Shown: one piece after another, positions 45,631 to 49,422 of the stretch | Layout: each line of letters begins with the position of its first letter | Position numbering within the stretch: position 1 is the first letter of the stretch | NCBI GenBank assembly: GCA_023954355.1 | Contig: JAMLID010000017.1 | Span: 1,418-65,417 of the forward strand | Direction: 5' to 3' | Length of the DNA stretch: 64,000 bases | Source of the DNA: Oligoflexia bacterium | GTDB lineage: Bacteria; Bdellovibrionota; UBA1018; CAIPTA01 | Made by a program: the position numbers and the translations under genes | The notes under the pieces: model-generated | Seen by the model: the letters and a program-made list of their open reading frames with translations, nothing else | Database searches by the model: none | What the model was told of the DNA's origin: nothing

Positions 45631-46419
45631 TCATGCTTCAATTACAAATCTTGGAACTCTTTTTTCGAGAAAAGCGCTCATGCCTTCCGTCGACTCAATA
45701 TGAGAAATTGCTTTCCTGAACCCTTCTTGCTCTTTTTCTAATGAATTATGCGTGGTCAAGCCAGGCAATAGGTTAATGATCGTTTTTGCTTGAAAAATTC
45801 CATGTGGTGATTTTTTCAATATCTCACTAATTGTTTCAGTCGCTGCTTTTAGCATTTCAGATCGATTTGTAAATACTCGATTCACTAGTCCTATTCTCGC
45901 CGCTTCTTCTGCTTCTATGATTCGGCCAGTAAATATAAGCTCTTTTGCCAGAGCAGGACCAATTAACCTTGGAAGCCTAACACAACCACCAAAACAAGGA
46001 ATCAAACCTAGATTTACTTCTGGTTGTCCAAATTTGGATTGCTCAGTTGCATAGATAAAGTCAGTTGCCATTGCTAATTCGCATCCACCACCAAGAGCGA
46101 CACCGTCGACACACGCAATAGTTGGTATTGGCAACTGTTCTAATAAATTCATCACATCTTGACCAAGACGCGCAAATTCTTCACCTTCACTCGCACTCAT
46201 TTGACTCATCTCTTTGATATCAGCACCAGCAACGAATGCTTTTTCTCCTTTCCCTAAAAGAATCAAGGCACGATTCTTTTTAGAATTTTGAAGAGATACA
46301 AGAAGCTCTTTAAGCTCTATTAATACCAAAGAAGACAATGCATTTCTTTTTTCTTCTCTTGCAATACAAACAGTAATAAATGAACTATTTTGCTCTATTT
46401 CTAAGTATTGATAACTCAT
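45631..46419 (-). CDS. Enoyl-CoA hydratase/isomerase (crotonase) family protein
   Basis: Preferred ATG is 46419, preceded by AAGAGGAGAAAGC. The crotonase motifs KAFVAGADIKEM, DGVALGGGCELAMATD and PEVNLGLIP are present. Confidence 0.9.
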   Translation of the reverse strand: MSYQYLEIEQNSSFITVCIAREEKRNALSSLVLIELKELLVSLQNSKKNRALILLGKGEKAFVAGADIKEMSQMSASEGEEFARLGQDVMNLLEQLPIPTIACVDGVALGGGCELAMATDFIYATEQSKFGQPEVNLGLIPCFGGCVRLPRLIGPALAKELIFTGRIIEAEEAARIGLVNRVFTNRSEMLKAATETISEILKKSPHGIFQAKTIINLLPGLTTHNSLEKEQEGFRKAISHIESTEGMSAFLEKRVPRFVIEA

Positions 46420-46432
46420 GCTTTCTCCTCTT

Positions 46433-47320
46433 TTAAGAATCCCAAATTGCACCAAAAGCAGGTATTCCACGGCTTTCTAACTCATAATTTACATGCCAGG
46501 TGACTTTTTTATTAGAAATACAAATTACAGCCTCAGCATCAAACTCTTTATATGCTTCGTAAGCAAGTTGCACTACATCGGGTTTTCCTTTTTCGTCTGT
46601 ATCCCAAATAATTGCCTCTTTTTGCACGGCTAAAATTTCGTTCACTAAATCTTCACCATAAGTTTTCGTAGGGTTTCTCGTTGACCAAACCAAGCGCGAG
46701 GGTACTTCTTTTGATAGAAGGTGCGGTAAGCAAGGACCAATTCCGCTACCTGTGGCTACCCAAATTACCTTTTTAAAAAGCTTTTCGATATTTCCCACTC
46801 CAGCTGTTGGGATTCCTTTCACCCAAAGTTTTTCTGGCTTTTCATCTATCAACTTACCTGTCCAATCACCTGCTCTTGAGATAGTAAGCCGAAAGCCGTC
46901 TTTCCCGGGAGATGGCACATTTGCAAAAGAATGCCACTCGACTAAAGGGTTTCTACTTAGATCAGTAGAAGACCCAGCAAAAGGTGTAACACCGTAATTA
47001 AATTTTGCTAGTGCAACATGGGATGATGGTGTCGTTAAGTCGACATCGATTTTTTTTAAACGAAGCCAGGGTAAAATAAGACTGAAAGTACTTAAAGATA
47101 AAGCCCAGAAAGAAGCCTGTTGGTAAAATAAGACCCCTTCATTTTGCGTTAAGAAAAACTGAACCCAAAAAAGAATCAATGAAGACCATAGACCAAAGCG
47201 TCCGATAAGTTCGAATGTATTATGATATTTAGCGCGTATTTTAGGTAGAGCAAAAACAGTCATAGTTACTAATACAGCACAATGAAAGGGGATTAGAAAA
47301 TACAGCATATCATTAACCAA
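46433..47320 (-). CDS. Membrane-anchored ferredoxin-reductase-like (FAD/NAD(P)-binding) oxidoreductase, C-terminal part of a TmpA-like flavoprotein
   Basis: The N-terminal 3-4 TM helices are followed by WHSFANVPSPGKDGFRLTISRAGDWT (an FAD-binding-like beta barrel) and VIWVATGSGIGPCLPHL (a GxGxxP nucleotide-binding motif). The start is uncertain (TTG 47320 or ATG 47308). Confidence 0.6.
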   Translation of the reverse strand: MVNDMLYFLIPFHCAVLVTMTVFALPKIRAKYHNTFELIGRFGLWSSLILFWVQFFLTQNEGVLFYQQASFWALSLSTFSLILPWLRLKKIDVDLTTPSSHVALAKFNYGVTPFAGSSTDLSRNPLVEWHSFANVPSPGKDGFRLTISRAGDWTGKLIDEKPEKLWVKGIPTAGVGNIEKLFKKVIWVATGSGIGPCLPHLLSKEVPSRLVWSTRNPTKTYGEDLVNEILAVQKEAIIWDTDEKGKPDVVQLAYEAYKEFDAEAVICISNKKVTWHVNYELESRGIPAFGAIWDS

Positions 47321-47335
47321 GACCTTCTCTCAGTC

Positions 47336-47764
47336 CTAAATAAAAAGAATAGAACAAAGTAATCCCGAGAAAAAAGCCCCGACATGAATACCGCCAAAAT
47401 GATACACCTTTCCTAATGCCCAGCGAATCGAAAGTGGCCATGATTTTGGTGCACTTGTAGCGATCGCAAATAAAGCATTGATTACGTATTGCTGTCGAAT
47501 GCATATAGCTAATGTAAAGTTCAGCACAACAAGCAATGTCGTCAGCTCAAAAGTGAATTGTGAAATCATTTTAAAAATTAAAAAATTAATTCCAGTAATT
47601 AAAATGGCTAATCGATTATATGGATTCAATAGGGGATTTCTTAATACGCGGTATAGTAGCTCTTTTTTTTCTGGAAGAACCGTTCTATCTTTGACGAGCT
47701 TTAAATGACTTTCTTTTATCGGCATTAAAGTTGATTTTTTTTGCGTGAAATATACTGTGTCCAT
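47336..47764 (-). CDS. Membrane protein, N-terminal part of the same TmpA-like unit
   Basis: 142 aa with 3 TM helices. Its ATG overlaps the stop of the upstream adenylation gene (TAATG). It is in the same reading frame as 46433..47320, separated only by TAG-GAC-TGA-GAG-AAG-GTC. Confidence 0.55.
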   Translation of the reverse strand: MDTVYFTQKKSTLMPIKESHLKLVKDRTVLPEKKELLYRVLRNPLLNPYNRLAILITGINFLIFKMISQFTFELTTLLVVLNFTLAICIRQQYVINALFAIATSAPKSWPLSIRWALGKVYHFGGIHVGAFFSGLLCSILFI

Positions 47765-49422
47765 TAAAGTTCCTCGCTACTTTCTATTTTTTGAAGAGCT
47801 AAAATTGTTAGTTTGCGTTTGTCGATTTTTCCTCGGTCTGTCATTGGCAGTTGATCAATAGAAAAAATATGACTTGGCTCACAGTAATACGGCAGAGCAG
47901 TACGTACGGCCTTCTTTGCTTGATCAAGATCAACCTCTAGTGGACTCACGAATGAAACTAGGGTTTGGCTGTCTAGTTTTAATGTTACGGCTCTCTTACA
48001 GTTCTCAATCGACTCTAGAGCAGCAGAAATAGAGTCTAACTCAACTCTAAATCCACGAATTTTTACTTGATCGTCAGTTCGACCAAAATGCTCAAGCTCG
48101 CCATTACTTGTCCAGCGTCCTAAGTCTCTAGTGCGAAACATTTTAAAGTCAGGGCCAAGAAAGGGATCATCTACATATCTATCATTAGTTAGTTTTGGAT
48201 TTTCTAAATACCCATTACTTACACATAATCCACCTGCCCACATTTCTCCTACATCACCTATAGAGCAAGGATTTCTTTCTTCATCCAAAATATAGACTGT
48301 ATTATTTGGTGTTGGCTTACCGATAGTAATGAGATTTGAATCTGGTATATATTTTTGCATAGTATTTACAATGGTAACTTCGGTCGGACCACAGCAATTA
48401 TAAAAGATGCATTTTTTTGCCCAGCGATCAGCTAAAGTTTTAGGACAGGGCTCTCCTGCTACAGCAACCACTTTAGCCAAAGTACACTCTTCAATTGGAA
48501 TTTGTGCTAAGATAGAGGGCGTAGCAATCACTACTTCTGCTTGCTTTACTGTTTCTACAATACTTTTAGAGCGAATTAATAACTCACCTCCGTGACAAAG
48601 AGAGGTAAAAATTTCCCAGGCAGCCATGTCAAAAGCGATATTTAAAATCTGTGAAACTTTAGTTCCTGAAGTTACGTCTAAGTTTCCAGGCTTAGTTAAT
48701 AGTAAATTCACCAAATTTTTATGAGTGACAATTACACCATTGGGCATTCCTGTGGTGCCCGAAGTAAAAAGTATAAAGCAGGGATCATCACTTTTGAGCT
48801 TATGGTCACTTTCTATATTTTTAGAAATTTTGCTATTAATCTCTTTTAAGAAACTTTCAACAGCTAGCGATGGAATCGTACTAGGTACTCTGTCTATAAA
48901 ACGAGAGAGAGTTAAAATTATCTTCGCTCCAGAGATTTTTATTATGTGATCTAACTGTTTTTTGGGAGCAATACGAACATCTTGAGGGATGTATATGGCA
49001 CCTAATTTTAATACGGCTAGTATACTAATAATCATAGGAATCGATCTCTCGGTAAAGAGCGCAACTTTATCACCATTAGTAATGCCTAAAGACTTTAGTT
49101 TTGTGGCTAAGGCATTTGCCGATTGATTTAACTCAAAATATGTCACTTTATGCTCTTCATGACGAACAGCAATTGCATTTGGATTAGCTTTGCACACAGC
49201 ATGGAATGCTGACAAAAGATGCTCGTAAGTAGGCTCTACAGAAGGTCCCTCTCCAAATTTTACGAATCTTTCTTGTTCATCTAGAGTTAAAGAGTCAAGC
49301 AGAGGACTACCCCTAAGAAAACCTAAGCTGGGCTTTGATGCGTAAGGGAAGTAAGAGTGAAAAGTATTGTCTTGAAAAACAACTTCTTCTGGTGATAGAG
49401 ATTTTAATCTTTGCTTTTTCAT
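47764..49422 (-). CDS. Stand-alone NRPS-type adenylation (AMP-binding) enzyme without a carrier domain
   Basis: Adenylation core motifs LFTSGTTGMPNGV (A3), GELLI...GPTE (A5), YRTRDLG (A7), GRTDDQVKIRGFRVEL (A8) and PMTDRGKIDKRKL (A10). The ORF ends 17 residues after A10, with no LGGxS carrier motif. Confidence 0.85.
   Translation of the reverse strand: MKKQRLKSLSPEEVVFQDNTFHSYFPYASKPSLGFLRGSPLLDSLTLDEQERFVKFGEGPSVEPTYEHLLSAFHAVCKANPNAIAVRHEEHKVTYFELNQSANALATKLKSLGITNGDKVALFTERSIPMIISILAVLKLGAIYIPQDVRIAPKKQLDHIIKISGAKIILTLSRFIDRVPSTIPSLAVESFLKEINSKISKNIESDHKLKSDDPCFILFTSGTTGMPNGVIVTHKNLVNLLLTKPGNLDVTSGTKVSQILNIAFDMAAWEIFTSLCHGGELLIRSKSIVETVKQAEVVIATPSILAQIPIEECTLAKVVAVAGEPCPKTLADRWAKKCIFYNCCGPTEVTIVNTMQKYIPDSNLITIGKPTPNNTVYILDEERNPCSIGDVGEMWAGGLCVSNGYLENPKLTNDRYVDDPFLGPDFKMFRTRDLGRWTSNGELEHFGRTDDQVKIRGFRVELDSISAALESIENCKRAVTLKLDSQTLVSFVSPLEVDLDQAKKAVRTALPYYCEPSHIFSIDQLPMTDRGKIDKRKLTILALQKIESSEEL

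Follow-up and report, generated by a model that had tools for sequence, protein, structure and literature searches.

A three-gene adenylation enzyme–flavoprotein–crotonase cassette of the TmpL/TmpB/ChNPS12 family, with a split flavoprotein gene, in an Oligoflexia bacterium

A cassette of tightly packed minus-strand open reading frames (ORFs) was examined at 45.6–49.4 kb of a 64,000-nucleotide stretch of DNA from an Oligoflexia bacterium (GenBank assembly GCA_023954355.1, contig JAMLID010000017.1, positions 1,418 to 65,417; hereafter the window, in which all positions are counted). In the direction of transcription, the cassette encodes an adenylation (A) enzyme of the nonribosomal peptide synthetase (NRPS) type, a membrane flavoprotein and a crotonase. 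A first description made from the letters alone, referred to here as the sequence-only reading, had listed four packed ORFs, and their positions were confirmed; the unit, however, consists of three genes rather than four, one of them, the flavoprotein gene, being interrupted by two stop codons. The first gene (47764..49422, minus strand) encodes the stand-alone A enzyme of 552 aa, which was assigned from TIGR01733, PDB matches, alignment of its specificity code and motifs. Its stop codon is overlapped by the ATG of the flavoprotein gene (TAATG), and the A enzyme and the membrane part are separate genes here. The flavoprotein gene lies on the same strand in two pieces, a 142-aa N-terminal piece (47336..47764; TmpA-like, PF26733, NADPH-oxidase (NOX) fold), recognised by alignment to intact homologues, and a 295-aa C-terminal piece (46433..47320), with the break at 47330..47338 read directly from the sequence as an in-frame TAG (47338..47336), GAC and TGA (47332..47330). 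The last gene (45631..46419, minus strand) encodes a crotonase of the short-chain enoyl-CoA hydratase type.

The A enzyme matched PF00501 at 4e-65 and reached 323.9 bits with the TIGR01733 model 'amino acid adenylation domain', above its cut-off of 317.4, and the acyl-CoA-ligase models of NCBIfam all scored far under their own cut-offs and lower than the NRPS models. The closest solved structures were all NRPS A domains, including LgrA (381 bits) and GrsA-PheA (274 bits). Asp235, which binds the alpha-amino group, and Lys517 are both present, and an ordinary acyl-CoA synthetase of the FadD/MenE type was ruled out by the NCBIfam scores together with Asp235. The core motifs A3–A10 match residues shared by 90% or more of 77 family sequences; A1 and A2 are also present and more variable across the family. 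The enzyme carries neither a thiolation (T) nor a condensation (C) domain, the former being concluded from a C-terminus that lies only about 20 residues past motif A10. These results agree with the initial description of a 552-aa NRPS-type A domain with motifs A3–A10 and without T domain, which groups with NRPS A domains and not with acyl-CoA synthetases.

Extraction of the specificity code, which the sequence-only reading had proposed, yielded D-M-W-S-A-A-C-I-V-K (DMWSAACIVK; anchors checked by alignment). This code matches that of fungal A domains (DMWS-AA(S/C)IVK), and across bacterial and fungal members the code is essentially the same (D-M-W-S/T-A-A-S/C/A-I-V/I-K). The code comes nearest to those of the Phe type (DAWTIAAICK). 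A hydrophobic amino acid has been proposed as the substrate in the literature on the fungal proteins (PMC4804170). As a separate observation, the A3 motif FTSGTTGxPNG is invariant in the window and in the 77 family A domains, with an Asn at the usual P-loop Lys position, and the family A domains also hold an invariant Cys in NxCGPTE.

When read through the break, the two membrane ORFs can be aligned over the whole length of single 426–470-aa proteins. The N-terminal piece holds transmembrane helices TM1–TM3 with the invariant motifs RQQ..IN, ATS.P..WPL and K.YHFGG.H, and the C-terminal piece TM4–TM6, an FAD-binding beta-barrel (EWHSFAN, RAGDWTG) and an NAD(P)H domain (GSGIGP). Homologues from distant phyla are 62–76% identical to the C-terminal piece and all carry the precomputed Pfam assignment PF26733 ('03009_C'); the window's protein was assigned through its identity to these members, as the Pfam set scanned did not include the PF26733 model. 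With this set and with NCBIfam, neither the two membrane ORFs nor the read-through protein nor the intact homologues gave a match. The name 03009_C derives from the adenylate-forming reductase literature. Across phyla, the membrane proteins stay 55–76% identical to that of the window, which argues for a precise, conserved chemistry.

The fold was studied on an AlphaFold model of the intact homologue P0002, which is 72% identical over the C-terminal piece (pLDDT 88.5, pTM 0.84). The model consists of six long helices, after which come a beta-barrel and a domain of the Rossmann type. Foldseek returned full-length matches to SpNOX, NOX5, DUOX (DUOX1) and NOX2 (E ~2e-11; TM-score 0.57–0.62 to SpNOX), and the C-terminal half matched ferredoxin/flavodoxin-NADP reductases (FNR). 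A profile search against PDB sequences gave a single weak match, to the FAD-site motif of NOX2 (E 0.03), and an ESM Atlas feature search with the transmembrane part gave sub-threshold leads only, with the ferric-reductase transmembrane family at 0.80. Based on the model, the membrane protein is predicted to have an NADPH-oxidase-like fold with six transmembrane helices and an FNR-type FAD/NAD(P)H domain. The GSGIGP motif and the FNR-like module named in the sequence-only reading are thus present, within an overall NADPH-oxidase fold.

The two pieces of the flavoprotein gene share one frame and are separated only by TAG-GAC-TGA, with no frameshift. Both stops fall within 7 nt, at the end of TM3 and in the TM3–TM4 loop, a variable stretch of the family. 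To place this break in context, we used a scan of one genome per species, which gave 337 matching stretches among 185,579 genomes; all counts of loci given here refer to the best 80 of these. The flavoprotein gene was interrupted in none of these 80 other loci. Despite the break, none of the 98 family-invariant residues is lost and 48 of the 51 near-invariant ones are retained, which is as good as in intact homologues with their 0–10 deviations. Downstream of the second stop, GAGAAGG is followed by an in-frame TTG (47320) and ATG (47308), and the spacing from this Shine-Dalgarno (SD) sequence to either restart codon is poor, with 2 nt to the TTG and 14 nt to the ATG. Given the two stops and this poor spacing, the cassette may have lost its function here.

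We give about equal odds to a gene broken only very recently and to an enzyme that functions in two pieces. To the explanation that the cassette is a decaying remnant here, in which the double stop inactivated the flavoprotein and no product is made, we give slightly less than an even chance; it competes only with the working two-piece enzyme and is compatible with the assignment of the family. It is favoured by the uninterrupted gene in all 80 other loci, by the spacing to the possible restart codons and by the distribution of the cassette, which was found in one of 40 relatives of this genome (in the same order, intact and equally diverged) and is therefore patchy; it occurs in none of eight same-family and one of two same-order genomes, which suggests that loss is common. 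However, the split halves show no frameshifts, retain all invariant residues and have a count of deviations in the mid-range of intact homologues. In addition, the A gene and the crotonase gene are intact with their family motifs, and both stops fall in a variable inter-helix loop at which a split would be structurally tolerable. We regard it as very unlikely that the gene is intact and that its two stops arose in sequencing or assembly: although the assembly is a draft of 79 contigs, two independent substitutions would be needed, consensus assemblies seldom contain such errors and the surrounding sequence is free of indels.

A comparable arrangement is seen at the neighbouring gene boundary. 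True fusions of the A enzyme and the flavoprotein occur in 21 of the 78 loci carrying an A gene, and in at least 11 further loci the two genes lie in frame with one or two stops between them. Same-frame genes of this kind were observed at L019, L023, L024, L034, L040, L045, L052, L054, L068, L071 and L073, and the arrangement is also present at L008:6363-9314; such loci include several from Tenacibaculum and from Chloroflexota. Fusion or fission of genes through nonsense codons therefore seems to be recurrent in the family, and the frequent in-frame separation by a single stop also speaks against decay as the explanation of the break in the window.

For the crotonase, the ORF at 45631..46470 matched PF00378 at 1e-57, as expected from its earlier assignment as an enoyl-CoA hydratase/isomerase. 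Judged from the sequence, its start is most likely ATG 46419, which is preceded by AAGAGGAGAAAGC, a strong SD sequence, and gives a protein of 262 aa like its homologues; the start described before is thereby shifted, and the gene is separated from the flavoprotein gene by a 13-nt spacer and not by a 38-nt overlap. Comparison with the short-chain enoyl-CoA hydratase 5z7r gave 188 bits. Both catalytic Glu residues (GGGxE, xPE) and the oxyanion-hole motifs are present, and all 74 cassette crotonases compared have them without change; the enzyme is thus predicted to be canonical and catalytically complete.

The sequence-only reading had suggested a synteny survey, and the neighbourhood proved to be conserved across phyla. 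An A gene lies directly upstream of the flavoprotein gene in 78 of the 80 loci and a crotonase gene directly downstream in 75, and several of the exceptions are contig ends. The loci are spread over at least six bacterial phyla (Bdellovibrionota/Oligoflexia, Bacteroidota, Chloroflexota, Actinomycetota, Gammaproteobacteria and Myxococcota). In Tenacibaculum, a Bdellovibrio metagenome-assembled genome (MAG) and Nonomuraea, for instance, the flavoprotein gene stands between the AMP-binding and enoyl-CoA hydratase genes in the same order, with different flanks. As this order is kept in 75–78 of 80 unrelated genomes, the arrangement is far beyond chance. A search for a fourth universal gene in the 80 loci found none; regulators vary, and DUF6733 is confined to Bacteroidota. 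OmpR-type two-component genes are located nearby in 25–28 loci from several phyla, an extracytoplasmic function (ECF) sigma/anti-sigma pair is found near the cassette in Nonomuraea and a LysR regulator in one Bdellovibrio MAG. The DUF6733 gene was observed downstream of the crotonase gene in 41 Bacteroidota loci (e.g. L019:8144-8857), and its product, with a signal peptide, alternating beta-strands and an aromatic C-terminus, is probably an outer-membrane beta-barrel, which could let the substrate or product through.

A search for longer relatives retrieved 478 fused proteins of about 950–1080 aa that combine PF00501 with PF26733. Many of these are bacterial (e.g. from Aquimarina) and dozens are fungal, the latter being annotated as 'nonribosomal peptide synthetase 12' or 'adenylate-forming reductase 03009' and 43–44% identical to the membrane part encoded in the window. 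No PP-binding motif was found in the fused A–flavoprotein relatives. The cassette is a bacterial, unfused member of the known orphan TmpL/TmpB/ChNPS12 family ('adenylate-forming reductase 03009'). TmpB of Aspergillus nidulans has been described as a fusion protein in which an NRPS-type A domain, whose pocket residues are D, W, C, G, I and K, is joined to an oxidoreductase domain like that of TmpA; in Aspergilli, tmpB also has a conserved enoyl-CoA hydratase (crotonase) gene as its neighbour (PMC4804170). The parallel to TmpA and TmpB drawn in the sequence-only reading is therefore real, and with 43–44% identity and the same code it is closer than stated; it needs correction in that TmpB is itself a fusion and that TmpA pairs with AfeA. 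For fungal TmpL, which has neither a T nor a C domain, flavin binding was shown experimentally, and TmpL orthologues were said to be confined to filamentous fungi (PMC2766074). This confinement does not hold, as the same set of enzymes and the same code are present in bacteria. Likewise, stand-alone bacterial A domains have been reported to nest within the ChNPS12 clade (PMC2823734).

Based on these data, we consider it likely that the locus is a bacterial, unfused three-gene cassette of the TmpL/TmpB/ChNPS12 type which operates by the following steps. The carrier-less A enzyme would activate an alpha-amino acid to the aminoacyl-AMP, as suggested by its family, Asp235, Lys517 and the code held in common with fungi, and would be coupled physically or functionally to the membrane flavoprotein, as natural fusions of the two recur. 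The flavoprotein, with its FAD/NAD(P)H domain in the cytosol, would contribute a redox step that is linked to NAD(P)H and takes place at the membrane. Free coenzyme A (CoA) would replace the carrier, and the aminoacyl-CoA, or a (hydroxy/enoyl)acyl-CoA derived from it, would be hydrated or dehydrated by the crotonase; this is suggested by the lack of carrier and condensation domains together with a conserved third partner that acts on CoA thioesters. The product would be a small metabolite derived from an amino acid. Of the individual parts, it is very probable that the three genes act in one pathway, activation of an amino acid by the A enzyme is predicted with good confidence, a flavin/NAD(P)H redox step seems equally well founded, and a CoA-thioester intermediate is favoured with some reserve. 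As an idea only, seryl- or threonyl-CoA, which are themselves 3-hydroxyacyl-CoAs, could be dehydrated by the crotonase, while the label of a 'signal/lipid' product given in the sequence-only reading is speculation. We regard it as rather unlikely that all of the following hold jointly: a single metabolite of many phyla and fungi that is the missing TmpB/TmpL product, free-CoA chemistry, a 'half-NOX' redox step within the membrane, and a flavoprotein made here of two polypeptides through nonsense-mediated gene fission.

The A enzyme is neither a classical NRPS module, as had been noted before, nor an NRPS loader. No condensation domain (PF00668) was matched in the genome, which is 94.8% complete, and it is from this lack that a role as loader was dismissed; no T domain and no carrier gene was found at or near the cassette. 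Precedents for a free-standing A enzyme that charges a carrier from elsewhere in the genome, be it an NRPS carrier domain or a different carrier protein, are the stand-alone A domains VibE and YbtE (cited in PMC2823734), and the genome does contain three PP-binding matches. We nevertheless judge such loading to be highly improbable: one of these matches is an 81-aa frame that, from its size, appears to be the fatty-acid acyl carrier protein, and the two others, on other contigs, are carriers with different AMP-binding genes as neighbours. Furthermore, no small carrier-protein ORF recurs in the 80 loci, and natural fusions join the A enzyme to the flavoprotein and never to a T domain.

Besides the spacing at the restart codons, several points weigh against the proposed pathway. 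The step with free CoA as carrier is one that we infer. No cassette-specific residues, for example for binding of an amino group, were detected in the crotonase; it is 45% identical to a housekeeping-like paralogue of the same genome, and 52 of 53 conserved positions equal those of this paralogue. At two basidiomycete loci, no crotonase was found within 10 kb of the fused gene. Deviating gene sets also occur in bacteria, such as L017:4411-7970 from a Pseudobdellovibrionaceae MAG, in which a PNPOx-like FMN-binding protein replaces the crotonase next to a fused A–flavoprotein of 955 aa, and L015:4709-7230 from a cyanobacterial MAG, which carries the flavoprotein without A gene or crotonase. Finally, the four-His bis-haem pattern of NADPH oxidases (two His each in TM3 and TM5), as judged from sequence and helix positions, is not conserved. 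The only invariant or nearly invariant transmembrane histidines lie in YHFGGIH and R..YHN.FE, corresponding to H108 and H113 (5 residues apart) and H170 of P0002, and invariant Arg, Gln, Lys and Glu are abundant in the transmembrane core. Electron flow may thus differ from that in NOX, and because the haem His pairs are not conserved, we term the flavoprotein NOX-fold and not a demonstrated trans-membrane electron carrier.

As observations in their own right, the fused gene of L017 is flanked by hybrid histidine kinases, and the L015 flavoprotein gene lies directly 3' of a CMAS-type (cyclopropane/mycolic acid synthase-like) methyltransferase gene, a hint that lipids may be the substrates of some family members.

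The NOX-like fold also bears on a further explanation, in which the system is mainly an oxidase that generates reactive oxygen species (ROS) or maintains redox homeostasis, as proposed for fungal TmpL, with the A domain as regulator or sensor. The fold of the whole protein, the oxidative-stress phenotypes of TmpL mutants (PMC2766074) and the two-component, ECF-sigma or LysR regulators that adjoin the cassette in many lineages are in line with such a role. However, the four-His pattern required for trans-membrane electron transfer is the very feature that is not conserved, whereas the catalytic motifs of the A enzyme, its specificity code and the complete crotonase are strictly conserved, which points to turnover of a substrate. 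We therefore consider a primarily ROS-generating system improbable and retain the amino-acid-activating pathway.

On the downstream side, two further membrane genes on the minus strand had been named as possible members of the unit. The first (44975..45538) encodes a DUF2878 membrane protein (PF11086, 1.5e-20) and the second (43534..44952) is a polytopic membrane ORF of 472 aa that matched no family. A scan for promoters and terminators revealed no convincing terminator separating the crotonase gene from the DUF2878 gene. Both genes nevertheless lie outside the conserved unit, as neither stands beside the cassette in any of the 80 loci, and this part of the sequence-only reading had to be abandoned. 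Their G+C contents are 0.35 for the DUF2878 gene and 0.32 for the 472-aa ORF, compared with 0.38. DUF2878 is usually found in operons of the cyclopropane-fatty-acid-synthase-like type. Upstream, a divergent gene (49676..51880, plus strand) encodes a coiled-coil protein of 734 aa whose weak matches are SMC-like; in other genomes it is unrelated to the cassette.

TmpA, TmpB and TmpL have been linked since 2006–2009 to fungal sporulation, redox balance and virulence, and a compact three-gene operon with the same code in culturable Tenacibaculum, Aquimarina, Vibrio nigripulchritudo, Grimontia and Nonomuraea makes the system testable in simple hosts. With its interrupted flavoprotein gene, the copy in the window is a poor model for such studies; it does provide a natural test of how far the transmembrane domain of the NOX fold tolerates fission.

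Among known systems, the class of Ceriporiopsis subvermispora Nps1 ('L-serine reductase'; Kalb et al. 2014; Brandenburger et al. 2016) resembles the cassette in having an adenylating domain followed by an FNR-type reductase. In PMC8070225, fungal adenylate-forming reductases with such an FNR-type part are listed under 'Type IV (L-serine reductases)'. Substrates of this class are reportedly Ser, or Ala, Val and Ser. Within the literature on the family, leaving aside Kalb 2014 and Brandenburger 2016, we found no chemistry.

NADPH oxidases and ferric reductases (SpNOX 8qq7/8qt6, NOX5, NOX2, DUOX) share the fold of the whole protein with the family of the window, and the EWHxF/GDWT FAD-site motif resembles that of NOX2. 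They differ in their low identity of about 15% and in two haem-holding His pairs that the family lacks, and, unlike NOX, the flavoproteins have an A-domain partner in 78 of 80 loci. A second parallel is provided by TmpA of A. nidulans, a membrane flavoprotein from this family whose genetic partner, AfeA, is an adenylate-forming enzyme (PMC4804170); AfeA, however, is 4CL-like (coumarate-ligase-like) and not of the NRPS type, and the TmpA/AfeA pathway is separate from TmpB. The closest counterparts are TmpL (Alternaria brassicicola, Aspergillus fumigatus), TmpB (A. nidulans) and ChNPS12, which likewise combine an A domain without T or C domain with a part made of six transmembrane helices and an FAD/NAD(P)H module, the GSGIGP motif and a matching A code. 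In contrast to the separate genes of the window, in which the membrane part is cut once more, they are single polypeptides of about 1000 aa. Linkage to the crotonase is near-universal in bacteria, whereas it was not seen at the two basidiomycete loci, and the fungal phenotypes of conidiation, ROS tolerance and virulence have no known bacterial counterpart. Set against these systems, what is new here is a bacterial, locally split member of an already known family.

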